Shown here one piece after another: positions 4,742 through 56,341 of a DNA stretch of 64,000 bases (positions within the stretch are counted from its first letter, which is position 1; the number at the start of each line of letters is the position of its first letter). This DNA is from Bilabrum cf. latius (Eukaryota), in contig OZ237767.1 in assembly GCA_965178125.1 (NCBI GenBank), positions 744,001 through 808,000 of the forward strand, in the 5' to 3' direction. The notes beneath the pieces were generated by a model that saw nothing but the letters and a program-made list of their open reading frames with translations, was not told the DNA's origin and did no database searches. The translations under genes and the position numbers were made by a program.

Positions 4742-5348
4742 ACCCGGTGCATAGTATGTTCGACTTGAGCATCGTTTTGCCTGTGCCTGCCTCTGCTCGG
4801 GGTGATTGGCACGGGTGCCTTCGCCTAGGCGCAACCCAGCCTGATGACCAGCTGCCGTGCTCTTGCACGATTTGCTGGATCGGTCTGTGCGCCCGTGGCT
4901 TGTCTGTCTGTGCATGTGTACAAATTAGAATTTACACTATACTTTCCTGATTTTAGAGCCAACTATCACTGATTCACTACCGTTCCTTGTCAGCCCTTTC
5001 CTGCATATTTCCTACCTAATGAGCCTATGGTGAGCCAGACAAGGGCAGCTTCTCCTATTTTCTACTACCTTTCTTGAAATCCTCTTCGAATTTTCTTCGA
5101 ACTGATGCGTCCTTTAGGTGATTTGAGAAAATGTAATAGCCCAACAGGCTGCCGATCGCCGCAGCCCCTAGCACCTCAATCCGTGTAATGGTGGGTCCCC
5201 GGCCAGACATATGAGCTCTCCTGGTCGTAGTAGGCGGGTACTAGGCGCTCTCGGTTTAGCACGCACGTGGTAGAAGTGTGCCAGCATGTTCCATTGGGCT
5301 GCTGCTCCGGATACCCGTCGTTGTGCAAGGAGGGACTTTTAATTCTCC

Positions 5349-8300
5349 ATGCCGCAACTGAGCAGGCTACAAAAGCTCCGTTCGTTATTCTTCTCCACCC
5401 ACCCTGATGCTGCTGCATTCATTGTTGTGGCGGGGCCCGACGCTGCTCAAGATGAACCGAGTATGGTGATTCTAAAGTACTTGTTTGCCCCATCCACTGG
5501 CCCAGCAGTATTACAGCCCGAGGCTTCGTCTAGCATTGCAGCACTCGATGATGTTTTCCTTGTGGTTTTTCGTGATAGCGCTGTAGTGTACACAGGGGGC
5601 ACCAAATCTCAGGGCTGCGACACCGTAAAGGGAACGGCATCAAGTTGGCCTGGCACGGAGATTATGCAGTTGCCCGACAAAATGAATGCCCAAGATGCAA
5701 AAGCAGAGGAATTCAAGGCGCGGGCGTTCGTAGAAGCAACGTATGGGCTCGCTGGTGAACTGGTAGGCCTACTTTTCAAATCACCTGAAGGGGCCGACGA
5801 TTCAAACGACGAAGCAGCGCCCAAACGACTGTCAAATGCCCAGTCTTTGGTAGAAACGTGGCCTTTGGTCCAGGCAACTGCACTAGAATCCCACGGAATG
5901 CGTTCGCGGGGCTTCTTTTCGGCCACGCGGTCAATAGTCCCGTGCGGAGACCTGCTAAAAGCGGTCCTCGATGTCGATGGAACTACGATGCTGGACCTCG
6001 TGGGAGCAGCAGTCCCACGGTTAAATTCTCACTTTCATCGGTCTTTGAAGCTGCTTCAATCGCCGTTTTGGTCGTCTTGTGGCCACTCGCTGGGTCATGA
6101 TGCGAGCAGCGGCCGTTGGCAGGTATTGCCAGCTGCTGCCCAACTCTCGGAAGCCAAGGTGGCGGAGGATCTGCTGATGCTGCGCGAGTTTGCGGCGCTT
6201 CAGTAGGAGGGTGTCCTACATCTTCCTACTACGCAGACTCTTCTAGAAGTGCCACCTGACAGGGCTGGATGCTGGATGGGCATGCGCACGTCTCTGCTGC
6301 CCGCCACGCTGTGGGCTGCTGCTGTAGGAGGGAGAGGGAGAGATGGACCCGGCTTGGGCGATGCTGCTGCATCCAAAGGGGTCGATCGAGCCCCGCCCAT
6401 CGGTCAAGCTGGGCCTGCTGGTACGCTGGCCACGCACGCTGTGGTGCGCGGGCACGATCCCAGCAGCGGGCTGCAGCTGGCCCGCACGGTGATCCTGCAC
6501 GCTGGGGGCCTGGAGCAGAGCGAGTCTGGCAGCAACGCTGCTGTGTCGGCTGCCCTATCAGCCCTTCAAAAGGGCCATACGTTGGCGCAAAAGGCCATGG
6601 CCTCCTGTTTGGCGCGGGACGCTGGGCGTGCAAGCGGCGCTTCTGGCGCAGGAGACGAACTAGACGGGGGCAGGTGCTTGGTACGACTGGCTGCTGCTGC
6701 ACTTGCGGCTCTCACCAGAGCATGGGGCTTCCCTGCCATCGCTGAGTCCTTGGGCAAAGAGGCAATTCAAACGGCGAAATCCACTTTGCAGGTTGTGATT
6801 GATGTCACCAATGCAGCCGGGTAGCTCGAGGGCAGCGTGAGGGCGACGCCAGCCGGCTGCTCTGGTCCTTTTGATGCTAGGATGGCCGGAGAATCCACAG
6901 CATCGGTACATAGAACCCGTGTAGAGGGACGTGCAGGATCGGGTGAGCAAGATGTGGACGTTGACGTGGCTGGTGAGTGTGGGGCGGCCCCGTCATCGCG
7001 CATCTTGGTGGTGTCCTGCTGCTGCGGTGACGTGCGTGTGTTCGGGCGAGCTATTGGGGCCATGCTTCTCACTGACTCGATCGTTCTGGTTCCAGAGCAC
7101 ATTAGTGTATAGAAGAAGCCAATGCAAGGTGCGGGCTTGCTTGCGGCCTCCTCTGGGGCAGGGGCGGCTTCGGCGCTTCCTCCACGCAAGCCAAGTGCCA
7201 AGGCTGCCGCTGGCGCTCCTTGGTTCCTCTCCGATTCGGACGGTGCGGCCTGGGATTGCGCCGGACCACTCTCCTACGTGCCTTTGGTGCTCACAGACGA
7301 GGTACCTTTGTGGCAGAGCATGTAGTGGCCTTCGGCTGCGTCGGGTCAAGCAGCAGCAGCTCCTGCAGGTGCCGGTTCAGCGAGGGGGCGGGGAGCCACG
7401 GAGCTGCCAATCACAGTGCATTAGCTACTAACCGCTTCTAGCCGAGCTGTCCGGGCCGGTGCTTTGTGTGACATTGCTACTGGTGGATCCAGCATGCCTC
7501 TTGCAGTCCAGGCCCGGGTGCTGGCGACAGACAGCCGCCTACAAATCGCGCATCCTTTGCTCGGGGTCGTCACACTGGCAGCCGATGACGCGAGGTGGTA
7601 CGCGGAATACATCGCGGGTTCAGATATGGCCAAGATGGCTGGTACTAGGCTGCGCAAATACGAGGATAGAGTGGCGGTGTACTCTCAAATAGCATGCACC
7701 GGGCCCCAACCCGATGACGAGGCCGTGGTAAAGCTTGTTCAGTCCATCGAAGACGAGGAATCGGGCGGACCAGGTCAATTTGGTGCCATATGGAGACGCA
7801 AGACTTCGGCCGGGGCCAAGAGTCCTTTTGCACCTTCTGACGCTCTCATTCTGAAGCTGGATGCAGGACTGGCGCCCCGAAGGTCTACGACAGCATCAAC
7901 TACGAATGTGTTGGTGCTGCTGCTGTAGCAAGGGTCTCATGTCCAGGCCCTGCTGCGGCCATTGGTGAAAAAGTGGGAGGCTTCTGACCCAGCCAAGTCG
8001 TCAGCTGCAAGCGCGCGCCCGTCGCGCCAGTGCCTCGCAACCGTCGGTCGTAACCTGTGCGGCAGGTACGCCGTCGCCTGGAATGCGATGGTTGCCGCCG
8101 AGTGCATGGAGCGGCACTCGAGTATGCTGCACCCCAAACAAGCTCAGTGGGTGGATGAGTGTATACGTGCATCGACATCACACGCGCCTGAGGCCGTACG
8201 TGTAGACTTCTACATTGGCACAGCGGACTCGCGAGTGTGCCAAGTTGCTGCTGCTGCTGCTGCTGCACGGACTGCAGCCACCCCATTGCTCGTTGACCTG

Positions 8301-9809
8301 CACTCCAAGCCATTCAGGGCGGACGATGTCGCAGCAGAGATATATAAATCAATTCTTGCCCATGCTTCAGCTGAGTGCAATCATGTTGTTGTGGTGCTGC
8401 CTGCAGGAGTGGGAGCGTACGGCGCCACCGCTGTGATGGTCGAGCTTTTCAGTGCAGGTCACTGCTCCCCGAGGTTAGGGAACGCTGTACTGTGCATTGA
8501 GTGCAGTCAGCATGTATCATCGTCGCCTGGAAGTGGATTTTCGAGCCAGCTGCTGGCTCGCTGCGCAGTTCCCGGCGTGCTGACGCATGTCGCCGTGTTG
8601 TGCTCCAAAGGCCTGCGTCCCGGTCGGGAACTGTCGCAGCAAGTGCAGCGGCTGCTGCATGTAGTGGAAAATGCATCAAAAGTGTTAGTTGAGATCGACT
8701 CATCTGTGTATGAGCTTTCTATTGGATCTGCTGCTGTGGATGCGCTCTGCTCAGCGGCTCCTGCGGACCGTTCGCGAGTCGTGAGGGCCAAACTCGCCGT
8801 GGGAAGACCGCTGTCGGTGCAGCCATTTGATGGTGCTCAAGCTCATTGGCCGCAAGAGGTTACCGTCGAGATGCATGCGCCGTGTGTGCTGGACGGAGCT
8901 CGCCTGTCGCCACTCCTCGAGTCTTTGCAGCGCCCTACCACCCGGTGGTCTGCAGCTGACCTGAGCGCAAGCCACGCTGGCACGGTCGGTACTACCTTGC
9001 TGGAATCGATCGGCGGGGTGCGAGGCCGCTTCTATTCAACCACTGAAGAACCCATTGGTGGTTAGGGGAGTGTGTTGGGTGGCAAGTACGGCGGTCTACG
9101 CTTGAGTGACGCCATGGTGGTACGTGGGGGTGCTCTGATGCTTGAGGAGGCAGCAGTTGAGACTGGGGATGGAGAGGCTATTGGCAGCGGTGGAATGATT
9201 CGGGTTCGAGTATTAGATCCAGTCCTTTTTGGATCGAAGCATGCACCTGGAGCCACTTACACAGTTGAGGGTGTAAAGGAAGCCTTGGGACGCGCCCTTG
9301 GAGCGTGTCGGCCCCAGATACCCGCTCTGCTGCCCCGCCGAGACTACGCCGGGCTCACTGCAGAGGAGCGCCGGGAGTTTCAGCACTGCTGCAAGCAATT
9401 GCCCGTGCCTGCAGAGTGGATGTATGATGGGTCCAGGTGGGTGTCCTTCGATGGGCGTGTCTCGTACTTGCATCCCGCCCACGAGGACGCCTGGCGCGAA
9501 TGCGAGGCAGCCTTGAACCGCAGGGTTGACGAGTTCAACGAGACAATTAAGGGGCTGCGGGCCAGAGCCAGCCGCGAGGCAGACGCATTGGCAGGCACAG
9601 CTCGTGATCCATGGTGGAAAGACATCCCTGACGAGCCCACGGTGTCGGGCCCTGCTGGGATCGCGACCGTGATGGGTGAGTCAGTAGTGCAAGCTGCCGT
9701 TCGAGATCGGATTGGGGTCCAGGAGGGGAGCGCGACTGATCCGGATGCTGGCCCCCCAGAGGCTGCAAGTGGCGCAGGGGCAAGCGAATCGAAAGCCGGG
9801 GGCGACTAA
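5349..9809 (+). CDS. DNAAF9: DNAAF9/C20orf194 (Shulin)-like dynein assembly factor, ~1486 aa (TAG=Gln)
   Basis: A single frame broken only by TAG (6204, 6822, 7110, 7323, ~7422, 7926, 9063), ending in TAA 9807-9809. N-terminal LDDVFLVV..AEEFKARAFV..VETWPLVQATALE..GFF and C-terminal LPVPAEWMYDGSRWVSFDG..HP match my recollection of C20orf194 motifs. Confidence 0.8.
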
Positions 9810-9981: not shown

Positions 9982-12900
9982 TCAGTCATTAAGCTGGCAA
10001 AGCAGCGCCACGCCCTTGAGTACCCAGTTCTTTGGCTCCACCCCAGTCGGCATCTCCACAGCCACCACAAAGTTGGTGCTCATGCCGGTCGTGCTCAGCG
10101 TGCCTGCTCGAACGCTTGTCTTGTACACGGGAGCGGAGTACTCGTCTGGGTTCGGCTTGTAGTCTTTGTGCGGCATGAAGTGGATGATGGGCACCGTTGA
10201 AAACATCTCGCCTGGCTTCGAGTCGACCACCGAGACCTTGTCCGAGTCCCAACGAGCCCCGTCCATGTAGAGGCCGTGCACCAGCACGCCATCCGCAGGG
10301 ATCTGGTCTTCCTTGAGCTCATGTGGGCCCATCGCCTTGTAGATAGTGAATGAGAAACCAAGGGCATCGATGGGCTGCTGGAACTTTCTGGCGTGGTTCT
10401 GCAGTGTGCCAGTCATGAAGCCCTGAGGGAAAAAGAAACCGCTGAGCCAGAAACTCTTGGGCTGCCCGTTTACTAGCCACTCCCGCAGCATGGCAATACG
10501 TGAATGCAAGTCCTTGACCCACGATGCTAGCGGCTTAAGAGACGGATACGCCACGTTTTCCCAGTTGCCTGGCACCTGGTTGTTCAGCATGGAGCCATAC
10601 ATGCGGTCCAGCTCGTCCGACATGAGGGCCTCTCCTCGGATGGCCCTCTGAATCTCCTGCAGCGACTCCCTCATCACGTGCAACAGGCGGTTGAAGCGCA
10701 CCATTTCCTGTGACAACACAGTCGCGAGCGAATCCATGTGCTCTCCCCGCATCACGAATGTGCCAGCACCTGCTTCGGACCGGTGCAGCGATTCTGGCAG
10801 ATCCTCGTATATTGAGGTGGACAGCTCGCTCACCTCCTCATCGGGCGTCTTGCCGCTGCCAGAGCTGCCTCCTGTCCTGGGCTGGATGGACAGGCTGGTC
10901 TTAAGGATAGAGTCCGTTTCGTTCTGCTGGAAGGTAATGTTGGCATTCTCGTGCATGCCAAAGATCTCTGGACCATCGTCGCGGGGCAGCTTGCGCACGT
11001 ACTGCTGGAAATCGGTTATGGGACCACTAGTAGGCGCGTAGTACGTGCCTGAAGGGCTGAACTTGTACCCATCCTCGAGAATGTCGGGTTCATAGAACTG
11101 CTGCAGGATGCTCATCAGGCAGCGGCGGTCCCAGTCGTCAGTCACGCGGCCACCATAGTTGATTTGTCCTGTCACATAGCGCATGGCATCCCACGGAATC
11201 GTGGGCTGATCTTGCAGGAACTTCTTCAGCACCAGAATGCTCGTTTCAAGATCTGAGTCGTTGAACTCGTACCGGATGTTCCACCCGAGCGGCCCGAACT
11301 TGCGCCGCTCCTACACCACAGCGTGGAAGAAGCACAGCCCGAAGGCCAACTTCTTCCACGCATGTACTCGCTCCACCCCGTTGGCAAAGTGCTCAGGGGT
11401 TGCTGACATCTGCATGCCATCCAAAGCACCCGCCCCCGGGGCCGCACCTGGAGCACCAGCAGCACCGTCGTCATCTTCTTCGACGGCCTCGGGCACCGTG
11501 CCCTCGCAAGAATCCCACGGAGTCCATGAATCCAGTTGGCCGAGAGAGCGAGTAAGGTTCGCCCGAATTCCCTTCGGCGGCTCGTTGGTGAGCTTCACTC
11601 CGTTCTAGAGTACAGGAACGGGGAAGTACGGCGCCGGCATTGATGTGAGCCACAGTCGGAAGTCAGGGTGGACGAACTCGGGCGAGCCGGGGATGGGACC
11701 CGTTCCATCCGCCGCCCCAGCGGTCTGGCGCCGAACGCAATCAGCTAGCTCGTCGCAAATAGCCTCAAGGGAGGGCATCCAAGACTTGCCCAAATGACAA
11801 TTCTGCAGCAACACCCAGTCACCATTGGCCTTTGCCCTGTTGATGAGCGCCTCGGCCCGAGCCCCCTGCCCCTGCCCGAGCGAGCACAGGTGCAGGCGGT
11901 CCATGTAGTCGACCTCTTTGGCGTACGTGTACAGCACCCCCGTCGGATCTGCACCAACGCTCAGGATGAACACCACTGGCGTGTCCGCCCTGGTTTCTCC
12001 ATGCACAACCTTCATGCTGACGGGCGGCGACTGCACGAACTCCTCGCCCAAGTGCTCCACAACAAAGTCCTGGGTGGCGAAGACCAGCTTCTCCTCGCGG
12101 AATGCCTTCAGCACCAGCATGCGCTACATAGAATTGAGTTGATCGCACCACGGCTTCGGCAGCGGAAATGAGTGCGGGTCGTCACAAGCGGCCCATTCTT
12201 GCCACTGTGGCTTGGTCGCTGGAGATACGATGTGGTCAACCAGAGCAGTGAACTTGTCCGGGATGCCCTCTTCCAATGCCGCCAGCAGATTCCAGCCATT
12301 CTCACTAACACTATCCGGCATCGGGTTCTACGTCTTGTTGGTGACCATGCCTGCGCCTTTGAGCAGCAGCGACCACTCAGAGGTAGACACCTCTTTAGCC
12401 TCCCTCAAGATCTGGATGCAAACCAGGAACGAGAAAATGAGTTTGTGTGCCTCAAAAAGACCCCTGCACACATTCTTGTACACATTAAGCGTCATATACG
12501 CTTTGAGATTTTCCAGTCTCGTATCGAGATCGTCACTCTTGTCCGCCTCGTCGATGCACAGGTCGTACAACCTCTGGAAGTACGATAGCGAGAACTGGTA
12601 CATGGGGTCGATGCGCGCCAGGTCTGCCATCACGAAATATATGATTGAGCCGCGAGTGGCCACAGGGCGGTACTACTCTCGCATAGTGGTTATTTGAGCG
12701 TTGGTCTTCTCCGATTCGATGAGCCGCTCGCTGATGGTCTTGCTCACCACCTTGCTCTCGCCCAGCGTCTCGATGAGACCCACGTTGTCAACGACCACCC
12801 CTTCGCTGTCCCTAAGCATCCGCAGGATCTTCTCCTCGAGCTGGTTGAGCTGCAGCTTGTCGCTTGCCATGCTCACAAGCAGGTCGTTTTTCTTCTTCTC

Positions 12901-15900
12901 AACGTCCGGCCTCTCTTTCTTGACTAAAGCTCCAAGGAGCTGGTCCTCAAGGCCAGACATGGTCACTGTGAAGTTGATCACCGTCACCTTGATGCATACC
13001 TCTGGGAGGTAGTGCGGGTTGGGAAGCTTGGTAGACACATACAGTCTAAAATCATCATTGTAGTCGATGTTGTCGTCCCCGAGTCGAATCAGCTTGCGGC
13101 CCTGCTGCGAGAAGACAGCCCTGGCTAGAACAGGGTCCAAGGCAGGGTCCAGGAACTCGCCAATGTCTTCGATCAACAAAGGCCTTCCAAGACGGATACA
13201 GTTGCCTACAGACCGCAGCATGGACTTGTTGGTCAGTCGAGTCACCTCCAGCCCAGCCTTTTGCTGCATGCTCTTGATCCAACGCTTCGCCTGCTCCTGC
13301 GGGTCGATCATCAGGGGCCACCTGCGGCCCCTTGTGACCAGGATGGCATTATCAGTTGAAACTGAGTCTGTTGGCAGCCCATGTAGCTGCCAGTCTCGGA
13401 CCTGCACCGGGTCCCCGAGAGTGTGCATCAGAGTGGGCGACTCGCTCACTGGCACGCCACTCTCTTTGCAGGACTCGAGCCAAGTGCCGAGCAGCTGATC
13501 ACGATAGGTTCCAGTGAACGGCCCAGCATACGACACCAAGCCTGCCGAGAGTAGCACGTCCCCGACCAAGCGTTCGATCTAGTCGGTAAGAGTCTCCACA
13601 GAGGCTTTCCAGCGCACTTGCTCGTCGGCCAGCCCCGTGGTGAGCTTGTCGGCTCTGGCGAGCCGATCTTTGGTCAGCTGGGCCGTCCTCTCGAGGCTCT
13701 TTTTCTCGGCCTCTGTCTCTTGGGCAGTCTTCTACAGCGCAGCGACTTTGTCTAGTACCTCCTGCAAGCTGTCCTGCTTGACCTTGAGTGCTGCCTTAGC
13801 CTCATCCAGTTGGGCATTCATCTCGGCTAGCCTCTTCTTCTTCGGCTCCACGTCCTTGGCTACCAGGGAATACGTGTTGACTGCGTGCACCCAGGAGCAC
13901 ATGGGCCCTGCCGCTGCACTCTTTCTCTGCACGTCCTCTGGTTTCATCAGCGGGTGATCGACGTACTTGCCTCTGATCTTCGACAAGATCTTGGGCTCGA
14001 TGTTGTCCTTGTCGTACTTCATGAGGCGGTCCAGGAAATCAGACCCACTCATGACTCGCTTCGCATTGTCCCAGTCAGGCTTTTCGCCTAGTAGAATGCA
14101 CACCGCCTCCAGCACGACCTTCACTGCTTCGGGTGGGCTAGCGAAGCCCTTGACTTCACCGACTGCAGATTTGGTCAGCTTGCTCAGGTCCTTCTCGGCC
14201 TTCTCCAGAGCTGGAAGTGCCAGGTCTAGATCTGCCTGTGCATCTGCCTGTACCACCTCAACCTCGGCTACTTGTTTCCCAACAGCTTCAGCCTCAGCTT
14301 CTACAACGACTTTGATTTTGTCTGCCTCCTCCTTCTCCCCCGCCACTGTGACGAGAAGCTCAGCCACTTCTTTCTGTTTCGCCTCGAGCTTCGGTTGCAT
14401 CTCTTTCAGCTCCTCCTTCAGTCCCGCCACAGTGGCATTGGTTTCTTCTAATTTGGAGACACCCGTGGCCATGGTGGACTTCTGGTCGCCCAGCTGCTCA
14501 CGCTTCTCCTCGAGCATGGCCAGATACAGGTTGATCAGGTCCAGGTAAGACTTGGGGGTCGTGTATACCTTGCGCTGCAGCTCCTCGTAGAACAGCTCGC
14601 TCTGCCGCTCCACGCTTTGGTGGATAACGCCGCACATTTTGGCCACTGCCTCATTGACTCCGTCGCTGCCGAGGTCTTGCTCCTTCAGGAATTGCCGTGC
14701 AACGCTCAGCAGCGCATCTTCCGGCCATGGCATGTACCAATCGATCGTGCAGCAGTTGATCAGGCTTGGAAACTGCCTGCAACGAACTCGCAGGCTGTCT
14801 CCGACGGGGCTCATGGCCAGGACAATGTGCAAATTGTCGCGAACCCTTGACACAAACATGCGCCACATGTTGTCCGGAGTAGCTGGGATGCCTGCCTTGT
14901 CACAGACGGACCTCAGGCCGTCGTAAATAGCAGCGAGCTCATCTGTCTCCCACAAATTAGGGATTTCTCCCGTGTTGAGCACGTTGTTCACGTCTTCTAG
15001 GAATGCCTCGTCGACGAGCTGGGTATCGGTAAGGAGGAACACGATGTGCTTGCCCTCCATGCCCGACACCCGCATGAGGCTCTTGATGTCCTCACGAAAC
15101 TCTGTGAGGCCATAGACCCTGGTCAACTCGATCTAGAAGCAGCGAATCTCCGCCATCGCACACGCCATCCTCGTCAGGCTCTGCTTCCCACTCCCTCCAA
15201 CGCCCACCAGCATTGCGTTTCCGCGGGGCTGTCGCAGGATTCGAGCGATTCGAGCAACGTGCTCCACAGCATCGCGGAAGAAGACCAGCTTCATCTGGGT
15301 GGGGTTGCTCAGGTTGTACTCCTCCAGCGAGTCGTTCAGTACAGACACGACTCGCGCCATGGACTTGGCTTCTTCATACTTGCCCAGTCCATCGTCTGCG
15401 CGGGGGCTGATGAAATCAACGAACAGGAGAGGGGTTTCTGCCTCGAAAAGCTCCTCCTTGGTCCAGCCCTTGCCCTGCTTGCCCATGACTCTCTTCACCA
15501 GCTCCACCATTGCCTCCTAAAACCACTCCTTGTCCTCGATCGAGACGAGGCGGTCGTGGAACACACGAGAGCATTCGTGGGCCCATAGCCTCGTCATGAC
15601 ATCCCCGGAAGGGCAAGCCTTCTTGCTGATCATGAGGACACCCTGGAAAACCTTCGACACATCGCGGAGGTTAAACGTGTAGTGCGATTTGCTGGGTGTT
15701 GGCCGCATGGCAGTACGAATTTTGTCGTAAATCTCGATCGTGGCTTGCACCACTCGGCTTGACGTGGACTTGACATCCTCGTTGAACGGCTCCAGGAAAC
15801 CGGACAGAATAGAGCCGAAAATGTGCTTCAACACATCCGGGCTTGCAGGTGGTACGCAAAGCACGTGGAAGTGCCTTGAAAAGCGAGGCGTCACCTCTGC

Positions 15901-18900
15901 TCTGCCTCCCCCCGGTGGCGCTGCCGCTGCTACAGTGACCGTGTCGTCAATATTCTTCCAGAACAGCTTGTCGCGGTCATAGAAGCCATGGAAATCAACA
16001 AGCTACCTCAGCAGCTCGATGGGAGGTTGTGCACCATATTCCTCCACCGCTGGCATGTTGACGTCATCCACGAACACAACCGCGCGCTTGTTCGCGGGAG
16101 GCCCTAGCAAATCCTTCTTCTTTCGCTCCATCTTTTCCTCAATTGTAAGTTGAGAACCCTTCGATGGTGTGCGGGCTGAAAAGTTGAGTACAATTGGGGA
16201 CACCTGGATGCCACCATCATAGTCCTGGGCCGATGCGCGGTTCAAGTAGTCCTGCACAACGACAGTCTTACCGGTGCCCGTCAGGCCGGTGAAGAATACT
16301 GGGTACAGCCGTTCTAACTGGGCCTCAAAAACGTAGCTGAACCGCACTGTGTCCACAGTGGGCACCACGAGGGCAAAGTAGGGCAGCGACTTGTCGTAGT
16401 GGAAGTCGTCCACCATGTTGCTCCATTTGATCCAGGGTAGGTCCGGCTTCGAGAGATCAGGGCACACGTCGAACACGGATGCAGTGCCAGGCCATCTCAT
16501 GCGAGACAGCACCGGATGCCCCTTGACGAACTTATCAAATCGCTCCTAGGGAGTGAGGCCGCTCGCGCCTGCCTCGTCCTCTTCATCGTCTTCTCCAACA
16601 GCAACGCCCCCGACGCTGCCACCCACTGTCCAAACGTACGAAAAAGCGAATAAGCCATCGATGGCTCGCTAGGCTTCGTCCTCAGTAATTGTGGTCCAGT
16701 CCAATGCAGCCTGTCCCTTCCGCTCTAGGAAGCTCTACAGCAAGGAGCACAGCGAGGCCGCCAACTGCAAGTCAACGGTCCTGACTGGTTCTACTAGCTC
16801 CTTGCGCTGGAAGTCGAGGCCATCTTGGAAGGACGCGTCGAATAATTCCATGATTCGGAGCCTCAGGGGCTCGGGTACATTATCTGGTACACCGTTTGGC
16901 AACCATGACTGCACGTACGGCTTCCAGCCTAGGTCAGCCGGGGTCACGTAGACAACCCCCAGCCGCGATACGGTTGCAGGACTTGCCTCTTCCAGGTCAG
17001 CAACCTCGAACAGCATTCGCATCTGGGAACGAAGCTTGATTCTCTAGCCATTAGCCAAGCAGAGAGTCTGGTTGTCGTCCAGCACGGTGTTCATGTTCTC
17101 GATCCACAGCGCATCGATCGGACCGTCGAATACGGTCCACTTCCGGTCCTCACCCTCATCGGCGACGTACCGCCGCATGATGCTGGATGCGAGACCATCC
17201 GTCCATTCCTGCGTGACTGGATCCTCTTCGCCATAAAGCTCTCCCATGGAGATGCACTTGGGATTCAGAACGCTCGTGAATACTCGCTGCATCCGCTCAT
17301 CCTCTGATTTCGATTCGCGCAGGGCTGTCATCGACCCTTGCAGCACCTGGTAGATGGTAGTCTTGCCGCCGCCAGTCGGACCAGTCAGAACGACGCCAAA
17401 TCGAACATTGAAGGTCTCGAAAAGCTGCACAACTTTCTTCTCAAACGCCGCAACTTGCTGCAGCCCACGCTTTGCGACTTCCGCCCGGATCGCTACAGCT
17501 AGTTCACCTACGTCGTTGGGTGGGATGCTCACGCCAGGGAACAAATCTCCTACGATAGCATGGAACAGAGGAAGATCCTCTGCCAAGAACTTCGGCACGT
17601 TAGAATCCTGCATGGCTCGAATCAGCACTACGTCTTCGCTGAGGTCAGGATTCTCCCGTTTGAGTGAGCCCGCCATCACTAGCACGCTCTTGACCGCGCG
17701 CATTCCGAAATCGTAGTGGCGCTGCTAGCTAAGCTGCTCAGAAGACAGCTTGTAGAGCTTGGTCATCTTTCTAGCAAGATTTCGTGTGTCCCCGAAGCCC
17801 TCTGCAAACAGGATAATCTCAGCGATGAGGCCGTAGTCGGGCACCATCATGGCTACGGGCCGGAACAGGACCTTGAGGTTGTCGGGCAGCTCGGTTCTGC
17901 CGGCATACCCGGGGTTCATGGTGATGATAACACAATGTGGCAAGAGCTTGATTCTCCTCCCTTCGAATTCCATGTTCGGCAGGCCCTGCAGAATACCTTG
18001 CCGAAGCTGAGTCAGCTGCTGCGCGATCACGGAAAGCACCTCGATGTCAATTCGGTTGAACTCGTCCAGGCATGTCCAAGACCCACTCTGCGCAAGCCCT
18101 GCAAAGTGTTTTCCCATCTGCTTGTACGTGATCTGCTCCGAGCAGTTGAACACGATGCACTGGATCGCCAGCCCCTTGGCCAGATCTTTGCTGCTCTCCG
18201 TCTTGCCAGTGCCGGCGGGTCCCGCAGGCGCCGCCCCCAGCTTGAGAGCCAGCGCTCCTGTGATCGTCATCCAGCAGCGGTCCGTCAGGGGAGTGATCAC
18301 CAGACGACTCATGACGCCCTAGTACTCGTACCCGAAATCGATGGCAGAATCAGATTGCCGAACTAGCACGTGCTGTTTGGTGGTGAGCCACTCATACCGC
18401 AATTGCTGCTGCCACGTGAATTCGCCAGGGGACGACACCTTCTCCTCCACCATGCGGTCCAAGATGTCACGCGCATGTACATCTGTGGTAACCAGAGCAA
18501 CGATCGTTTTCCGCTCGATCTTGCTCAACTTACCGCGGACCAGCTCTGTGAGCTAAGACAGCTGGAACACGTTGAGGTCCAGCCACCTCCGCATGGCTTC
18601 AAGGGGCTCGGCCTCTCTCAGAGCCACCTCTGTGCCTCGGCTCCACTCGATCAGCGACACTGTTGCCACAACCTGCGCGCGGTGCTGCACAACCCAGTCT
18701 TTCCTGTCCTACTCGGCATAGTCTTCCACGCCCTGCTTCATGAGCTGCCTGAGGCTTTCTCGCATGCCCTTCTCCACATCTGTCAGCCAGTCCTCCACGT
18801 TGCCTCGAGCTCGGATATTGGGGGGCAGAGCGACTACCTCCCCCTACGGACTCTCCATGTTGATGATGTCCGTACTACCCACCTCTTCGCCGAAATGCAG

Positions 18901-21900
18901 CTTCACAAGGGCATCGAAACACTTGCGGAGGTGCGGCTGCACTGCTTGCGGGTCCCTGGTCTATGCCAGGATTTCGAGCAACTCGTCATCGGCAAGGAAG
19001 TAGAACCGAGGGAAAGCAGCGCGCTTCGTCTCTAGGTACTCTGCGAGAGACTTTTGGATGACGTCCAGAACTTCGTTATGCTTTGCGAGGCGGTCCTTGA
19101 GTCCTTTTTCGGACCCCACCACTAGAGCTCGTGGGTTGTCGTTGGTCTTGCGCATCATCCCCTTGAAGCTCTTGTCCACAGATGCAAATTTCTTTGCCTC
19201 TTCTGGGAGCTGCCTCTTGATATCATCCGCGCTGAATATTGTCTCGAGGTACATCCAGTTCCTCTAACAGACCAGCCATTCGTCGAGCGTATCTGAGAGC
19301 ACCCGGAGCAACTTCTGCGATTTCTCCACCCTCTCGCGAATCCTGCCCACAAACGGGCTCGCCATAATCGTCGATAGGGTGACCAGCGACTCATCGAGAG
19401 CTGCATACACATCGTCAGGGCCACCCAAAATGAACACGTCCTTGCTTTCCTTGTAGGGAAGAACTGGTAGCTCCAGCTCAGACCACACCGACTCCACCTT
19501 TTTATCATAGAGCTCCAGAAGAGCTGCCTCCTGGGCGGCACGGGTGGCCACTGACTGAATCTCATCTGCCTTCTCAACCAGGCCACTGTTGACAAGTCCA
19601 CCGAGCGTTACGTTGGCCCGCGCCTCCTCATCGAGCTCGGTGTTGAGCGCCTTGGCGATGTCAGTCCAGTGGTCTTCCTCCAGGACTGGCGATCGCAGGG
19701 CCTGCACGGCCGGAGTGATGGTTCGAAACTCCATGACCATTCCTCGAAGCTTCGGAGCTGCCTGGTTGCCAGGCAACTGGCGCTCTGCCTTGGTAGCCGT
19801 CTTGAGGTACGTCTGCACCTACTTTTCCATCTCTTGCGCATCTAGCTGCTCCAGCCTGGAATCGACCCACGTGGCCGTGATGCCTTCCCAGTCTCGCAAG
19901 CCCGACCACAGCTTCTGCTTAATGCCGAGATCCAGTTGCACTTCCTCCAGTTGGTCGTACTCAGCCACCGGTTGCTTCAGCATCTCTTGCCAGTGCGCGT
20001 ACTACTCTGCATCTTCGGCCAGCTCGTGCAGCCGCTTTGCCTGCTTGTCAAGCAGAGCATTGACGTGGGACATGTCAGCGTCAGCATCGCCCACGATAGG
20101 GTCGTCCAAGTGTTCTCGCACCTCTCGAATCGACTTGCGCAGCTTGGGAACCAGCTTGTCCACCATGCTCGCAAAACGACCCGTCTCGTCTCCCAGCCGA
20201 GCCTCGAACGAGCCACTAGAATCTTCAAGCTACTGCATCGTCTGTCGCAAAAGGCGAAGCAAAGCCTGCTCTTGCTCGCCCAGTGGCCACTTTTGACCGA
20301 TGTACATTTCGGCTAGCCTCCGAGTGTGCTCCTCCGCATTGCGCAGCGTAGGAAGCCGATCCTGAGCCTTGTACAGAGTCTCAACCTTGCGCACGAAGGG
20401 ATCAACCTCATCGACATCCTCAGTGAGTATCTTGCAGTAGCTCTACGCCTCTGAGAGCGTCTCTTCCCCGCTTGCCTTGAGCAGCTTGGGGATGAGATGC
20501 TTGAGAGCCTCCAACGCGCGCTGAGGGCTCGGGAGCAGGAACAGCTTGAGCTCTTCCGCATCTAGCCGCGAAATGCCTATGTCAGCCGAATAAGGGATAG
20601 ACTGGAAGTCGTCAAACTAGGCGCGGTACTTCGAAATGGCGCCCTGCAGCACATCCAACGAGCTGCTCGCGTTGAACTCCTGGTCGAGGTTCTGGATGCG
20701 ACTCTTGTTGGCAACATGTAACTGCCCATACGGGACGAAGACCTCGCTAAACTCGAGAGCTTGATGCTCGCAGTAATCAACTGCAGCGATTAGAGCGTCC
20801 TGGATGCGGCGGAATTCGGGATGAGTGGCCACACGGGCCTGCAGCGAATCGCCCACTGCGCCGCCATCTCCACCGTCGTCATCGTCGTCGCCGGCCCCGC
20901 CTGCCGCAGGACCACCAGCCTCATCCTCCCCGGCAGCCGACGTATATGGCCTCAAGTCCTCATGCTGAAGCATCGGAGGCATAGCAGTTGCAACAGCCAT
21001 TGCTCTCGCAAGCAGTGCAGATAGGCGTGACTTGACAGTCTCCGCAGAGGGCTCGAGCCCAATACGAACGCTCGGGAGCTGTTCCTGGGCATCCTCCGGC
21101 TCCTCGTTGAGAGCACCATCATCCGCGGACTGCTTGGATTCCGATGCACCGGCCCCTGTCGTAGCATCGCCCGCCTGAAAGCTGCCAGGCCCATCGCGTC
21201 CGGCCGGCATCTCTTCGTCCTCACCGACAGACACTGCACCTAAGTCAGCCTCCAGATCACTGGACTCAGGCTCGACCTCGTCAAGTCTGACCAGCATCTC
21301 AAGCAGCGGGACGCGGGGCTGCACCAGGCCATCTAGTCCGCTGCCAGCCAATGACTCTAGAGTCGTGGTACTCTGAACAGTCTTCCCGGCTTCATCCCCT
21401 GGTTCCCCTGCGTCTTCATCATCCTCTTCATCCAGACCTGAAGTGCCCTTCTTCTTGGGCGGGGCCAGGTCCCGCTCCTTCTTGTTGAGGTCCCTGCGGA
21501 TGATGCGCCGAGGAGTACTCTCGCCGGTGGGACGTACTGCCTCCAGCAAAGCAGCGGCCGAGTCGAGTGCTAGGTTCAGCAGGGCGTCTTGCACTGTGAA
21601 ATCACACACTCGGATGAAACGAGTCAGTGACCCGCATTGACCCCGCAGCGATGCTCGCTCCATGAATGTCATCTTCGTATCTCCATTGATCTCCTGCTTC
21701 TCCAAGAAAGCATGCAGTACCTCGTCGCACGCTCCACGCACAAGCAGGCGGACATCATCAGAGAACTCGGCCAGCCACGTGGCTACTGCTCTCCGCTTGG
21801 CGGCCTGTGTGGCGGTGAACTCGGCGATGGAATACACCCTGAGAGGGTCCACGTGAAATAGCCTCCACTTTTTTACGGCATCGCACAGGCGCCTCACGCG

Positions 21901-23239
21901 GCCTACGCATGTCCTCAGCACCGGATCCAGCACGAAGAGAGACTTGGACACGGCTCGGCTGGCATCGAATGCCTTGCGGCGCTGCAGCATCTGTTTCCAG
22001 CCGGTGAATGCCTTCCACCTGCGGTACAGCCGGAAGAAACGGACCTGCAGGATCCTCTGGAACATGCTGAACTCCCTATCCCACGCAGATAGGGGCGTGA
22101 AGTCGCTCGAGTCGCCGACAAACCTGGTTACGCCTCCCTCTGACAGGGTCATGTAGTCGCTAGGATCCACCTCCTGCGCCGAGCACACCTCGAGATCGTA
22201 TGCGCCTGCCCCGTTACCACGCTTGCGCCGAAGGTATACGAAGTTGCCGGCCTCGAGTTGCGCCACGTCCCCAGGCCCCACGCCCAGGGCCTGCAGGAAG
22301 CTGCCACGCCACGACGAGGACCCTGTGCCCACTCCGATCGCGGCGCCTCCGCCCGCCGCGGCAGACCTGCGCCCCCCCCTCGCCAGGGACCCGCCCAGTC
22401 GCCGAGACCCTGCGAGTGCCTCCGCATCGGCCTCGGTCCTCTTGGATTCGGAGGAATCATGGGCGTCCTTGCCCTCCTCTGGAGCTGAGCGTGGCGCTGC
22501 AGATGGTACGCCCGGTAAAGAAGTCAGAGACCCATCCGGTGCCAGCTGTCCCGCCCCCAAGCCCTCCAAAGCCACCGCCCTTCTTGCTCCCAGGCTGGGT
22601 CCGCGCCTGGTCCCGGGTTTCGAGGAGTGGAGACTCGCGGCACTGCGATTTCCTGCTAGCGTCTTCCCACCCAGTGGCTTCAGTCGTCCTCCAAACAGAT
22701 TGGGTTTGTGACGTTTGGGTAGAGCAGGGAGTGATGCGGCGGATATTGCATGTGGATCAATGGCAGGCACCGGCAGTGACGGCAGCGTCCGGTTGCCGCC
22801 TCCGCTGCCACTTCGTGCATGCCCGTCGCTGCCCCCACTCGTCTCGATCACCACATTAAGCAGTCTGCTTGCTCTCTGCAAAACTTAAAGGATATGATGG
22901 TGCCCCAATACTGACATGGATATCACAGTGCCATGCGAGTGCAGCAGAACTACAATGATGGCTGCATGGAGACCTTAAATGCCGGTACAACACCACTTTA
23001 CGACTCACACCGGTGTCTGCAGTTTCTCTCATTGATGCGGCACTCCTACGACCATTCCCACCATCCTGCTCGACTCCTGCGCCCCGTCTCAGCGTGGGCT
23101 CGAGTGCCAAGCTGCCAGTTGAAGTTGTGTGTCCAGATTGGCCAGATGCCAAGACCAGCGATGGTGAATCTTCAGAGAGTCTAGCATGATGAATAGACCC
23201 GCTCGCAAATAACTGTGAAGCTAGGTCTGAACCGTCCAT
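9982..23239 (-). CDS. DNAH6: Axonemal inner-arm dynein heavy chain, DNAH6-like, ~4370 aa; exon 1 23239-23009, intron 23008-22876, exon 2 22875-9982 (TAG=Gln)
   Basis: All dynein ORF fragments lie in one frame separated only by TAG. P-loops [24 protein letters not shown] and [52 protein letters not shown]-terminus [21 protein letters not shown] then TGA. A phase-0 GTGAGT..TTTTGCAG intron links to a candidate ATG at 23239 (start less certain than the rest). Confidence 0.93.
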
Positions 23240-23348
23240 GATAGCTTGAACTTGTGCATCCCGCATGGGGATCCGTTGGCCTAAAAGTGCTCGCAACAAT
23301 TGCAGGATGCGGAGTCCGCTGCTTCCTAGTCAAAAACGATTGGTCTCG

Positions 23349-26300
23349 ATGGCTTTTGTCCATGGCAAACATACTGGATGGACCACACATATATCGTGCA
23401 ATGACAGCTCCAGGCGCTTGTCTCAAAGCGAAGCCGAAGACCAGGAGGAGCAGCAAACTCAGGACGATCAGCTTGAGCCAATATTGGAACCAGTAGCCCC
23501 CTTGCAGGGAGACCATGCTAGTAGGAGTGACTCATTGTATGATGGCATTGTTGTTCCTCTTAAATCCAGGGTGTTTCATGCGTGTAAATCTGCCTGGGTG
23601 GCAAATCATGGCGTGGTCGTGAACCTGGCGGCTGCGAAAGTCTCTCTTGAACAAGCCGTAGAAACCAGAAGGTATCCGCACGTAGACGTATACTGGGGAG
23701 ACTATTCTCCACCAATGATAAACCACAATGCAACAATTTTTTTGAGCACAACAGCGTCGACACGGCATGCGATTGGATAGGCAGTCTGCGAAGCGGCATC
23801 GAGCAGCAGACAGGCTGTTGCCATGTTACAGGGAGTGTTGCACGTACTTGCTGCCATAGGATGTACATCAGGGCCTGACCAACTCCTGTGTGATGCAAGC
23901 ACATTGCTGATCGAGGTCCGGAGGGCTAGCGAGAAATCTGCGGCGGGGGTCGTGCTATCCAGGGTATACGCGAAGCAAATGTGCGTAGAACTGCACAGGG
24001 TAGTACCTCTGCGAGGAAATGGTTCCGGGGATTCATTAGACACTCTCACAGAACCTCTACCACGTGGAAGAGCAGCGTCGGGTGTTTTGGACATTCTAGT
24101 GCAGCTGGGGGCTGGGGCGGACAAGGGAGATCGGCGGCTGGCTGGGATCGGCACGGGCTCTGGCGTGCAGTCCTTCCAGTGCTTATGGGCAGGGAGGCCC
24201 ATCCCATCGATCAGTGGCTGCCGCCGCCGTTGGGCCAACACCCGAGCCAGCCTCCTGCACTTGCTCGGGACAGGGAGACCGCCGGCGGAAGCTGAGCAGA
24301 TTCTTGGGTCTGTGCTGCGAACATTAGGAGCTGTGCTTCACCTTGGTAATGCTGGACTGCAAGTAGACTCAGAGGCGGTATCAGATGGCGACTTGGGTGG
24401 CTGTCGTGGCAGCAGCCGAGCACGCGGCCCCCTCCAAGCAGCTGCCTCATGCCTTGGGGTGCGCCCCTCTGAACTAGAGGGGGCCGTGCTCGCACAGTCG
24501 GGGCAGATCGACTTCTACAAGCTCGACCGAGTGATCAGAGCTGTTTATCTACGGCTGCACGATTTTCTCGTGTCAGAATGTAACCGCGCCCTCGCGGCAG
24601 CTGTGGGAGGCGCAGCCAGGTCAAAGGGCAGTTCGGTGGCAGAGGACAGTGCAAGCTAGAGTGAGAGCATGAGTCAGCTCTTCGTCGCAACTGCCGGTTA
24701 TGTGTTGCGCAATCCAAGGCCTTCGTCGATTAATCGAAATGCTGCCGGTGAGCTGGAGCGAAGGCTGTCGCTCCGACGGCGCCTAGAGTTGGTGGCCCTG
24801 CGAGCTTGTGTCAAGCGAGGGGTGCAAGACGGGCATGTGCAGGGCTAGTTCGCGCCAACTGGTGGTGAATCGTTCGCACGCATCACATCTAGGATACAAG
24901 CAATCGAGCTGTCTTTAAAGGTGGAGCCATCAATGAGATGGCAACATCCAGAAGCCCCGCAGGCTGATTCTACAACGATCGATGAGCACGTGACAGACCG
25001 ATGCTGGACCAAGCCTGCTCGGGGTGAGGAACACCCTGTAGTGGGCTTTGGTACTGTGGGTGACTATGACACGCTGTAGTTGGGGGCATCTTTCATCAGT
25101 ATCATCTCTAGTGCAGAAGGCTCCAGAGAGGCCCATGGAGGTGCCAATAAAGCAGAGGCAGAGCAGGTGCTCTCCTAGGTTGCGGGAGTGGATCACGTGC
25201 GAACTCATTACGTAATTGCGCCGCGCCGTGATAGCAAGAGTGCACTAGCAAGCAGTGCTGACGGTGGGCTTTCTTCTGATTGTTTCGACTGGGGCTTCGT
25301 GGATGCCTAGTTGCAGGACCTGTTGGTATACGACCAAGAAATTGATTTTGTGCAGACTCTGGGTCGTACTGCGAGCTTGAGCCATTTAGTATCAAGGTTT
25401 AGGTGCTTTTCAGCGGGTAGCTCAGAGGCTGCCAAGCGCGATGCGAGTCTTACAGATTGTGCTGAGACAGTGAAGGAGCTACTCGCTACAGCCCGTCGGT
25501 GCTGGTTCGCGCTCCGAGGCACCTCATGTGAGTGCCCGATTCCTGAGGCTGTCGTACGCGCACAAACCAGTACGGATTCAATACCATCCCTTTGCGATGA
25601 CAGCAGTCGTACTGTGGCATTTGTTCATTTGGGGCAAGTGCGGGTGCCTTGCAGCGTGCTTCTCCCTGTTGTTGTGCTGCGGCATGACGTGCAAGCAATT
25701 GCAGCTGCCAGGATCGCAGCTTTCCTTGCTGCTGCTACTGCCAGGCTGGTACGGAGCCGTAAACAAAAGGCCGCCATCGGAATGCAACGAGCTATTCGCG
25801 GTCACATTACCAGGCGATTGCTGGGAGCACTCTGGGAGCTTGCAGTGGGCGAGTGGCTGTGCAAGCAGTTGCTATGTGAGATGTAGCAAGGCCACCTGAT
25901 TGCCGCTGCTGCGCTTCATCAGTGCAGAGCAGGTCTAGTGGAATGCAAGTCTGTAGTCTCAATAGTGGCCAATGCATCCAAAGCGCTTGATAGTCCTGGA
26001 CTAGGGAGGCGCTTCCATTCTCGCGCGATTGACCTGTAGTCTGAGTGTGATGGGGCGCTATAGCGCTTGGCTCGCGTATCTTCCAGCTGTAGTGACTTGG
26101 TAGACAGTCTGCATGCATCTGATAAACAGGCTTAGGCACTCTAGAGTGCCGTATAGAGCCTGTAGCACCGGATTCAAGCGAACTGCGACAGGATGCTGAA
26201 GCTGCGCTTGACCAATGGCAGTATGGGTGTGCTTGAGCACCTTCGACGGCAGATCCGGCACACCGATGCTCTACATCCCCTGTTGCAACGTTTGCTACAC

Positions 26301-28007
26301 GGAAAAAGGCTCGAAACGACAGCACGAACATCGATTGCTTGCGTCGGTGGGAGTGCACAGCGAGTCCTCCGGGAATATGACGACGCAGTTGCATCGGTTG
26401 ATGCTTGCCGCCTTGACTATGCCTCTCTGCGTGCATGCATTTATGCAGCAGAGCGTTAGCGGTAGAAGCAGGGAATGCAAATAATGGCGCGCGAGGATGC
26501 ATCCGCCAGGTTGATTGAAGCGAGCGCCAAAGCTGCGGCGGAAAGAGCGATGTATCAAATCTAGGCGCACCAGGCTCGCGAGCAGAGGCAGATGAGCAGC
26601 GAGGACGCTCTCTCGTTCCAACGCGAGCATGACGAGCGACAGTCTGCTGTGCTGCAGTCGCTTCGACAGAGAGTTGTAGAGCAGCTTGCAAGGGATGATG
26701 ATAAAATGTCATCGTAGCTTGTCTGTGAGATGCAGGCTGCACAGAACGAAGCTCAGTCAAGAATATCGGTTCCAGACGCTGACATTGCCCCTGCGGCAGC
26801 TGCTCCTACGCACCAAGCCGATGAGCCTGTCACCGTCACAGCAGGAACGCCAGAAACACCGTCTGGTGCAAGTACCGTTGTTTCTTAGCCGGATCTATCT
26901 GAGCTGCGGCAGCTTACCTCAAGCTTGGACAGCGTGCTTGAGGGTGCCGCAAGGCTGGATGCCCGCCTGCAGTCCCGCCGGCTGCAGCTGCTAGAGGGGC
27001 AAGTCAGAGGCGCGCACACCACGGAGGAAGACGTGGACGACGAATCTGGAGATTTGGCGGCGTCTGCCAGGGCAGTATTCAGCAGCGGACCGAACAGAAG
27101 TCCAGATTGTGAGCCTGCGCCCCCTGGCCGTCCATCGACGGGTCTAGCGCTGGGTCTGAAGGCAGTCGATGATGCTGCGGCCTCCGTGCGACTTTACGCT
27201 TCCACCATGCACCCCTCCTCGCGAGGCAGCATGTCGCCGATACGCTCGAAATAGGGAGTTCATCCGATGCCCTGGGAGTCGTTTAGCACCAGTCCAGGAG
27301 AACCTGAAAGCAACAGCCTCTCCGCCTCATCTAGAGCACAAGCAGTGGCAGCTGTCGGCAGACTGCACGAGTCGCGCAGCTCGAGAGCCATCGAGTCGCG
27401 GAGCAGAGACATGCAGCTTCTACTGGCCGCTGGCACAGCCCCGCCGTCAAACCCTTCGCAATCACCTACGGACGTTGCCGCGCTGCCTTCTCCATACGCC
27501 GCTGCTGCCCGCGCCCAATCTCCACGGGCCCGGCAGGGCTCATCGAGCGGCTTCCGTGGTACCAGGGCAAGGAGTCCATCACCTCCCCCCATGCAAAGAG
27601 GCTCTTCCCGGCGGAGGAGAAGCCCTAGTCCCAGCGGCAGGCAGGGTGGGCAGCCGAGCCAGTCCCGCAGCGGCAGCCCCCTGGCAGTGGCATGGCAGAG
27701 GGGAGGGGCTGCATCAGCTGGCTCGCCGATTCGCAAGAGTGACAGGGACACGGATAACTCCAGAACCGGAAAGGCTTAGTCTTCGCGCAGGTCGCTGGGG
27801 GCAATTCGAAAACATTCGGTGCTGCTCAGCGATGGATTCAAGGCGGCGATGGCCAGGGGAGCAGGCGCTGGAGCAGTGCCAGTGGGTGGGTATGGGGACC
27901 AAGACGACTCGATCTACTCGGCTGGTCCGCAGGAGCCGCGGACACCCAGGCCTGCGAGTCCCTGCACTGCCCCTTTGCCACCCCCTGGGACACCCCCGTA
28001 GGCGTGA
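23349..28007 (+). CDS. Highly divergent myosin-head-like protein with IQ-like motif, coiled coil and Ser/Pro/Arg-rich tail (TAG=Gln); start uncertain
   Basis: One frame with ~20 TAGs and no TAA/TGA until TGA 28005-28007, then AT-rich UTR. Myosin-like segments LGAVLHLGN, AASCLGV, LDRVIRAVYLRLHDFLVSECNRAL and FDWGFVDAQL; IQ-like MQRAIRGHITRR. Confidence 0.65.
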
Positions 28008-29860: not shown

Positions 29861-30664
29861 TTACTCTGCAGAATTCGATTGCATCCAGCCTCTCTCCTTT
29901 GCCTCCTGAAATAGCCCAATGCACGCCCGCTATTCTTGTGGACTGATGTCTGGATTCCAAAAGTCAACCAGCAGCACTGTCCTGGATCTGTCGCTGTCGT
30001 TTCGCACCGAGTGCGCGTAGCTGTCGTCAAAAATGATGACCTCGTCGGGCTTCCAAGGCAGGTCCTCGCCCGCCACTCGCAACACTGCCTTGCCATCGCT
30101 AGGGATGTCAATCGGGATGTGCATTCGCAATCTCAAGTTTGAGGGGCCACAATGGGCTGCAATGGTGGCGCCTGGCGAGAGCGTCGAGAAAAACGCGTAA
30201 GCGAAGGGGATCCCTGTCATAAGACCGGGGATTGATTCCAATGCCTCTGCCGTGTTGGGGCAGTGCGCAGCAAAATGAGCTTGTCGTTCGCCTTTCTGGA
30301 TGTAGCTTAGCCATGTCCAGCTGTCGCTTGCGGTTGAGCTGCTAGATTCAGAGTTCTATGGGGCTGTTGAGGCTGGTTGGTGCAGCTTCATTTCACCATC
30401 AGCAAGTGCGTAGTCATTCCTCAGCACACCAGAGCTCTGCGCGGAATGGAACTCCACCTTAATGCGTGGAATCATCTCCTTAATGCGGTCGATCCACTCG
30501 AATTCTGAACAGTTCCAAATAGGCTTCTGGCTCAAGCCAGGGAGTGTCAGCAGGGATGGCTGCGGCCGAAAGACGTCTCTTGCAAGGATCTGCAGCACGC
30601 CGCTCCGGCGGACTCGGGCAGGTATTGGAGTTTGCATGCATCGAAGGGCTCTTGATGTTCGCAT
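29861..30664 (-). CDS. Aspartyl/asparaginyl beta-hydroxylase family 2OG-Fe(II) oxygenase (TAG=Gln)
   Basis: HCPNT, FSTLSPGATIAAHCGPSNLRLRMH, FDDSYAHSVRN and RTVLLVDFWNP. TAGs at 30356 and 29930 are in frame; ends in TAA 29861-29863. Confidence 0.85.
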
Positions 30665-30846
30665 ATTCTTATTTTGTCGCAGTCCTGCCAGTTGAAGCAC
30701 TCCGGTTGGGCCCAGCCACTGGCAGCCACAGGCGGCGGCCGGGCGCTCCGAGTTGGCCGCACCGGCTGGAACAGTTTTGTCGCAATTCACGTGTAGTAAT
30801 GGAGATTTCCGGCAATTGTTTGGTGTCATGAGTGTAATCGAATGAA

Positions 30847-35187: not shown

Positions 35188-35342
35188 GCGCCTAGAATTA
35201 TTTGAATTCAATGCCTTCTGAGGGGCAGATCTGCTGAGGGGGCCTTTTGTCTGCTAGGGAACCCCATTTTTTTCCCGGCGAACGTCTTGTTAAGGTTCGC
35301 TGTGACAGCGAGCAAGTTTTGCACGAAAAGAACCTTTGGTAC

Positions 35343-37982: not shown

Positions 37983-38123
37983 GGGATAGCTTGCGATCTA
38001 CATAGCAGGGCTGACAAGACTTTCAATTAACACACACATGGCAGCGGCGACTAATGACTCGGATTTCTGTCGAGAAAAAAAGCACAGCTCACCAGCCACA
38101 TCCGGGATGTAGGTGCCTGGGGT

Positions 38124-56283: not shown

Positions 56284-56341
56284 TATCTAATATAAAGTCA
56301 GGGACAGGGTCGGGGAAAAAAAATTTTCATCTTCACTTTTT

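Follow-up and report, generated by a model that had tools for sequence, protein, structure and literature searches.

Probable reassignment of UAG to glutamine, with UAA and UGA retained as stops, in nuclear genes of a stramenopile flagellate related to Cafeteria

The DNA analysed here, 64,000 nucleotides of contig OZ237767.1 (assembly GCA_965178125.1, Bilabrum cf. latius; positions 744,001 to 808,000) and hereafter called the window, carries an axonemal dynein heavy chain gene whose coding frame stays open throughout if TAG is read as a sense codon. From the genes compared, we put the probability that UAG encodes glutamine in this organism, while UAA and UGA serve as stops, at roughly 0.9. This assignment is made because three independent lines of evidence agree: the residues that homologous dyneins carry at TAG positions, the codons that face TAG in the same gene of a second species (contig L001), and the corresponding columns of a kinesin and a DUF6739 protein. 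The sequence-only reading of this DNA had proposed the same reassignment, which is upheld for the window and for one 12-kb locus of the relative. A code in which UAG alone among the stop codons is captured by glutamine corresponds to NCBI table 15.

When TAG is taken as sense, the minus strand at 9982..22884 forms a single frame in which 4300 codons precede a terminal TGA. The frame contains 26 TAG codons, no TAA, and one TGA, the terminator at 9982-9984, whereas each of the remaining five frames of this interval holds 7-23 TAA, 13-44 TAG and 22-134 TGA triplets. Under the standard code the dynein frame is split into pieces of at most 755 amino acids. The TAGs occupy codons 756, 814, 885, 961, 1022, 1207, 1308, 1347, 1392, 1444, 1522, 1720, 1947, 2050, 2072, 2113, 2294, 2456, 2584, 3051, 3102, 3404, 3519, 3587, 3760 and 3858, and thus run from window position 20617-20619 (codon 756) down to 11311-11313 (codon 3858). 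The sequence-only reading had described a dynein frame with 26 in-frame TAGs and no internal TAA, TGA or frameshift, a description that our count reproduces, and all seven TAGs that it placed by coordinate (11311, 11605, 15133, 16003, 17725, 18961 and 19264) are codons of this frame. Of the span that it gave, 9982-22875, the position 9982 stands, but the open frame reaches 22884.

Matches to solved structures identify the predicted protein. The best PDB match is the Chlamydomonas chain 8glv_Fm (3824 bits, over nearly the whole length), followed by mammalian DNAH6 chains (9fqr_Xz, 3525 bits; 9d2f_T, 3511 bits; 8j07_g5, 3509 bits), whereas the next class, DNAH1/DHC2, scores only ~2830-2870 bits. 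Because of this ranking, we assign the gene product to the DNAH6 type, a single-headed axonemal inner-arm heavy chain. The N-terminal end is less clear. The upstream limit of the open frame, which extends to 22884, is a TAA, and its earliest ATG appears only at codon 245, so that any start of the protein, or an upstream exon, is putative. The alignment of residues 1-244 with relatives is weak (23-33% identity over 78-171 residues). The N-terminal part is of low complexity and poorly conserved, and codons 1-755 (window 20620-22884, minus strand) hold no TAG, compared with ~4.6 expected at the density of the gene.

The meaning of TAG was evaluated by aligning the dynein, with X placed at each TAG, to 120 listed homologs using MAFFT. 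In 13 of the 26 TAG columns, glutamine occurs more often than any other residue. It ranks first in 3.08% of the 3892 usable columns, which gives a binomial P of 1.6e-13. Seven TAG columns are near-invariant for glutamine, namely those at codons 756, 1207, 1308, 1720, 2294, 3760 and 3858, where 103, 115, 111, 117, 115, 120 and 116 of the 120 homologs carry this residue, respectively. Outside the glutamine-rich columns and two columns with conserved glutamate, the dynein TAGs fall on variable columns. The mean glutamine fraction of aligned columns is 0.410 for TAG, which is close to that for CAG (0.406) and above that for CAA (0.293), compared with 0.046 for GAG and 0.051 for AAG. The bases flanking the TAGs were also compared with those flanking CAG and CAA, and nothing distinctive was found.

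A log-odds score similar to that of Codetta was then summed over those columns in which 60 or more homologs have a residue. For TAG it amounts to +40.7 nats for glutamine, -14.6 nats for glutamate and -24.3 nats for lysine, values on which either of the latter two residues is rejected as the meaning of the codon. Per codon, the glutamine score of TAG (1.57 nats) resembles that of CAG (1.50) and exceeds that of CAA (1.14). The test can be regarded as validated because all 61 sense codons return their standard meaning. Glutamine enrichment in TAG columns and a Codetta-type inference were among the checks that the sequence-only reading proposed, along with the remark that many TAGs sit at conserved glutamines, and the dynein alignment agrees with it on each count.

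A scan of metagenome contigs of the Joint Genome Institute (JGI) recovered L001, which carries the same dynein over 1926 codons at 89.1% protein identity and 76.2% DNA identity. Over this shared part there are 17 in-frame TAGs in L001 and 9 in the window, and the L001 frame ends in TGA. Twenty-five codon pairs have TAG on at least one side, and in 19 of them TAG faces CAG or CAA, in one it faces TAG, and in five it faces another codon. Conversely, among the 59 CAG codons of the window in this part, 45 face a glutamine codon and 10 face TAG. This exchange with CAG and CAA is how a synonymous codon behaves, as judged from the paired genes. The proportion of nonsynonymous differences (pN) between the two dyneins is 0.07, whereas that of synonymous differences (pS) is 0.78, which represents saturation of synonymous sites. 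The two lineages are therefore well separated, with purifying selection acting on the gene in both.

The third line of evidence comes from other genes. We collected 18 long stop-to-stop open reading frames (ORFs) from both strands of the window with TAG as sense, for a total of 16,309 codons (16,291 internal). These ORFs contain 116 in-frame TAGs, as compared with 501 CAG and 193 CAA codons, such that TAG would account for ~14% of glutamine-type codons. The statement of the sequence-only reading that TAG read-through repairs other genes on both strands is therefore sustained. In the kinesin ORF, TAG713 (in HINxSLSTLG, where x is the TAG) aligns with the glutamine of the KIF11 motif NINQSLLTLG. 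This site, given as HIN*SL in the sequence-only reading, belongs to the kinesin gene at 43736..47038 on the minus strand and not to the dynein. In the DUF6739 ORF, the conserved column of TAG165 holds glutamine in 33 and asparagine in 31 of 70 homologs, and the other six of its seven TAGs lie in variable or gapped columns. The three TAGs of the cullin ORF (codons 2, 25 and 33) all precede the segment alignable to solved cullins and are uninformative on the code.

A plausible mechanism involves two changes. A tRNA-Gln bearing the anticodon CUA would decode UAG and leave UAA unread. This anticodon is proposed because it is the sole one with that property, an argument made in PMC5304391 for Iotanema. 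In addition, the release factor eRF1 would have lost or weakened its recognition of UAG while recognition of UAA and UGA was kept.

Several observations weigh against glutamine as the meaning of UAG, or against its being the only meaning. Two TAG columns of the dynein alignment carry conserved glutamate (codon 1347, glutamate in 111 of 120; codon 1947, glutamate in 101 and glutamine in 19), the dynein of Cafeteria roenbergensis has glutamine at only 11 of the 26 TAG columns, and the five L001 pairs without a glutamine codon match TAG with TCC (twice), TGT, AAG and GTG. A tRNA search, of the kind suggested as a check on the reassignment, yielded no tRNA gene in the window (ARAGORN, Rfam) or in the loci L001-L008 (ARAGORN), and eRF1 is absent from the 64-kb window. 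No other Rfam RNA family was found in the window either. Furthermore, the last TAG of the 1585-codon ORF at 23250..28007 is codon 1584, one codon ahead of the TGA, a position that may be due to chance or may hint at residual termination at TAG. Finally, TAG could possibly act as a terminator in some genes, a use that would be hidden because the ORF calls take TAG as sense. The columns without glutamine and the non-glutamine L001 pairs fit ordinary substitution at variable sites, as far as alignments can tell, although a case for purely glutamine decoding on these grounds falls short of proof.

The last two of these points would be accommodated if UAG had a dual meaning, specifying glutamine within genes but signalling termination towards the 3ʹ end of certain mRNAs. 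Context-dependent codes of this kind operate in Condylostoma and Blastocrithidia. We consider such an arrangement improbable here. In 7 of the 18 ORFs the last TAG falls in the final 61 codons, but ~6.3 are expected from a uniform density of 116/16,291, and for the final 25 codons the count is 4 against ~2.9 expected, so TAG is not overrepresented towards ORF ends. Moreover, those C-termini that can be checked coincide with TGA or TAA. The TGA of the dynein falls at the C-terminus in 117 of 120 homologs, and that of the cullin ORF lies at the usual C-terminus of the family. For DUF6739, 38 of 70 homologs run at least 10 residues beyond the column of TAG775 with a similar pattern, whereas none of the 70 extends beyond the TAA.

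A broader reassignment, in which both UAA and UAG (UAR) encode glutamine, would require that TAA has merely become rare in a genome rich in guanine and cytosine (GC). TAA is indeed the rarest stop triplet when both strands are counted (641, versus 1194 TAG and 1788 TGA, at a GC content of ~58%). However, if TAA encoded glutamine, ~45 internal occurrences would be expected from the CAA:CAG ratio (193:501) and the 116 TAGs, and none is observed among the 16,291 internal codons even though CAA is common. TAA instead is the last codon of 6 of the 18 ORFs, and TGA, likewise never internal, is the last codon of the other 12. In addition to the DUF6739 ORF, the endonuclease/exonuclease/phosphatase and aspartyl/asparaginyl beta-hydroxylase ORFs reach a TAA soon after their last Pfam-matching residues. 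UAR reassignment is thus very improbable. Because TAA is never internal and terminates a third of the ORFs, the change is best described as one confined to UAG, with TAA retained as a terminator in this window.

The TAGs are reproduced in independent data. Contigs from sequencing runs of three studies carry the dynein stretch, and all 26 TAGs lie within difference-free pieces in runs X1 and X5, and the pieces listed for run X6 and for run X7 each contain 10 of the 26 without differences. Seven positions vary across runs, and none of them touches a TAG. The seven runs that carry the stretch (X1-X7) bear three different organism labels (A, B and C), and the flagellate may accompany or contaminate material that was cultured or sampled under the names of other organisms.

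It is very unlikely that the TAGs are present in DNA but not in mRNA, where U-to-C editing or the removal of tiny segments would preserve the standard code. The assignment of runs X5-X7 as RNA is a guess. If X6 and X7 do derive from RNA, identical contigs of each run across 10 of the TAGs and leave them unchanged. No contig joint skips a TAG. The eight joints listed have short sides of 21-48 letters and are probably attributable to paralog contigs, since they lie beside short mismatched pieces. Precise editing would also be needed at each of 116 sites in 18 ORFs. In addition, TAG positions turn over between the window and L001, with one of 25 shared and 19 swapped with CAG or CAA, which argues for a synonymous codon rather than for specified editing sites. 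It is hardly credible that the TAGs are genuine terminators of pseudogenes or arose through faulty sequencing or assembly: every large gene of the window is broken under the standard code, but the interruptions are caused by TAG alone, never by TAA, TGA or a frameshift, the contigs of three studies are identical at the TAGs, the second species has in-frame TAGs of the same kind, and pN and pS reveal purifying selection.

We propose that the window comes from the nuclear genome of a heterotrophic, bicosoecid-like stramenopile flagellate that would stand beside the Cafeteria clade. Among 1775 scored database homologs of the dynein, the best are a JGI protein (P0002) and FNF29_05515 of Cafeteria roenbergensis (P0003), both with 67% identity over the motor. 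The identity to C. roenbergensis ranges from 65 to 67%, and that to Cantina marsupialis is 60%. A tree was computed with FastTree (LG+gamma) over 3696 columns, using a subset of 47 sequences that consisted of the first 35 in the 121-sequence alignment together with 12 that bear names. It places the window protein as sister to a group comprising P0002 and the pair of Cafeteria and P0004, with Shimodaira-Hasegawa (SH)-like support of 1.0, and nests all of these in a larger clade of marine sequences and one Transcriptome Shotgun Assembly entry. This position, derived from a single gene, is provisional.

The genome of C. roenbergensis is GC-rich and intron-poor. Its orthologous dynein is one annotated protein of 4210 amino acids in which each of the 26 TAG columns is occupied by a residue rather than a gap, which points to use of the standard code by Cafeteria. 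Because this gene model reads as standard code, the reassignment would have arisen after the split from the Cafeteria clade.

Additional relatives were sought in several ways. The Logan-derived proteins P0122 (97% identity) and P0123 (88%) stop exactly before TAG481 and TAG775 of the DUF6739 ORF, respectively, which is what would be expected if a standard-code gene caller had processed a close relative. A search with a TAG-free dynein piece of 466 amino acids, aimed at relatives' gene calls broken in this manner, returned nothing above 54% identity, and a scan of a prokaryote genome collection did not find a relative.

Features of the window are listed in Table 1. A Pfam family is listed for 12 of the 18 ORFs (the dynein was identified by PDB match), and the FoP_duplication match is just below the cut-off.

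Table 1. Coding and repeat features of the window, with TAG counted as a sense codon
Feature	Position	Strand	Codons	TAG	Last codon	Support
Repeat-rich coiled-coil ORF	2..3085	+	1027	16	TAA	Pfam matches sub-threshold only
NUDIX ORF	3176-4741	+		0		Pfam NUDIX
DAAF9-like (dynein axonemal assembly factor 9) ORF	5343..9809	+	1488	7	TAA	PF23281 DAAF9_N, 53.3 bits
Dynein heavy chain (DNAH6 type)	9982..22884	-	4300	26	TGA	PDB match
ORF without Pfam family	23250..28007	+	1585	21	TGA	
Aspartyl/asparaginyl beta-hydroxylase-family ORF	29861..30874	-	337	2	TAA	PF05118, 132.7 bits
Histidine phosphatase (branch 2) ORF	33388..35289	-	633	6	TGA	PF00328 His_Phos_2, 98.1 bits
Endonuclease/exonuclease/phosphatase-family ORF	35238..37982	+	914	4	TAA	PF03372 Exo_endo_phos, 61.3 bits
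DUF6739 ORF	38058..40439	+	793	7	TAA	PF20524, 246.6 bits
Cullin ORF	41309..43522	+	737	3	TGA	
Kinesin ORF	43736..47038	-	1100	5	TGA	PF00225, 255.1 bits
Ankyrin-repeat ORF	50574..52010	-	478	2	TAA	
SRP40_C ORF				0		Pfam
FoP_duplication ORF				6		Pfam, just below cut-off
53-bp satellite	54750-55313					
Telomere-type array (TTAGGG)	55327-56284	+				100% matches

The DAAF9-like ORF is convergent with the dynein gene, and this gene order is kept in L001, where a DAAF9-like ORF with 18 TAGs adjoins the dynein in convergent orientation (5953-10722, minus strand). The two DAAF9-like proteins are 35% identical, as compared with 89% for the adjoining dynein, and their TAG pairs are uninformative. Judging from these sequences, the gene evolves very fast and occupies a conserved position. 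A homolog search with the window ORF scored 8000 candidates, none of which passed.

Other ORFs exhibit features of their own. The coiled-coil ORF, which runs off the 5ʹ end of the window, contains a unit of ~129 residues in three near-identical copies, in which TAGs recur at codons 72/201/330 and 103/232/361. The translation of the NUDIX ORF includes non-coding-looking stretches between its conserved parts, which suggests that it has small in-frame introns or a mis-set frame. Its product could be an isopentenyl-diphosphate isomerase, although this name is a guess from a match to the NUDIX domain alone. The motor domain of the kinesin spans residues 414-783 and follows the coiled-coil part.

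The window also includes a perfect array of ~159 telomere-type repeats that is internal to the window and preceded by the 53-bp satellite. The array is followed by satellite arrays of 155, 167 and 410 bp and by degenerate repeats of 85-234 bp that continue to position 64000, with a lower GC content of ~51%. The telomere-type array may represent telomeric sequence at an interstitial site, or else the assembly may have fused a chromosome end to unrelated DNA.

Changes of the nuclear code are rare, and codes in which UAG and UAA differ in meaning are rarer still. Such cases are reported in PMC11687900 for a rhizarian, Iotanema, Scotinosphaera and a few ciliates. As described in PMC5304391, the fornicate Iotanema spirale uses UAG for glutamine and UAA as a stop, which is the reassignment proposed here and involves the same predicted tRNA-Gln(CUA). 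However, Iotanema belongs to the Metamonada and its code was derived with transcriptome data and an eRF1 substitution (T32G), whereas the present case concerns a stramenopile and relies on the genes of two related species in genomic DNA. Protocruzia tuzeti and two phyllopharyngean ciliate lineages, according to PMC11687900, likewise use only UAG for glutamine, as deduced in the same way from UAG at glutamine columns, but changes of the code are common among ciliates. The same source lists UAR codes (table 6 type) for many ciliates, Ulvophyceae, Hexamita, Streblomastix and Amoeboaphelidium. In those codes, as here, glutamine captures a stop codon that is one transition away from CAG, but TAA is also a sense codon, in contrast to the retained TAA terminators of the window.

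The literature searched, which lay mostly outside subscription journals and supplements, yielded no nuclear code change described for stramenopiles or bicosoecids, and an earlier report may exist. The word 'stramenopile' occurs in neither PMC11687900 nor PMC5304391, and a 2024 review of stramenopiles contains the term 'genetic code' solely where it cites a work on mitochondria. The balance tips narrowly towards this being the first nuclear code change in stramenopiles, affecting a Cafeteria-related clade that comprises two or more deeply diverged species with GC-rich genomes (~53-58%), in which UAG became glutamine and UAA and UGA remained stops after the split from Cafeteria.

If this reading is correct, it represents an independent uncoupling of UAG from UAA in a lineage whose sister clade uses the standard code and has published assemblies, such that the order of tRNA and eRF1 changes could be compared. 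Draft genome assemblies exist for four Cafeteria strains (PMC6972860), and pairing such genomes with those of the lineage described here would help to show how eRF1 loses recognition of a single stop codon. A further independent origin would also test why UAA and UAG usually change together. More immediately, gene callers that assume the standard code split the genes of this organism at every TAG, as the truncated proteins P0122 and P0123 illustrate. Unless TAG is translated as glutamine, gene annotation and phylogenomics of the lineage, as well as its binning in metagenomes, will therefore be wrong.

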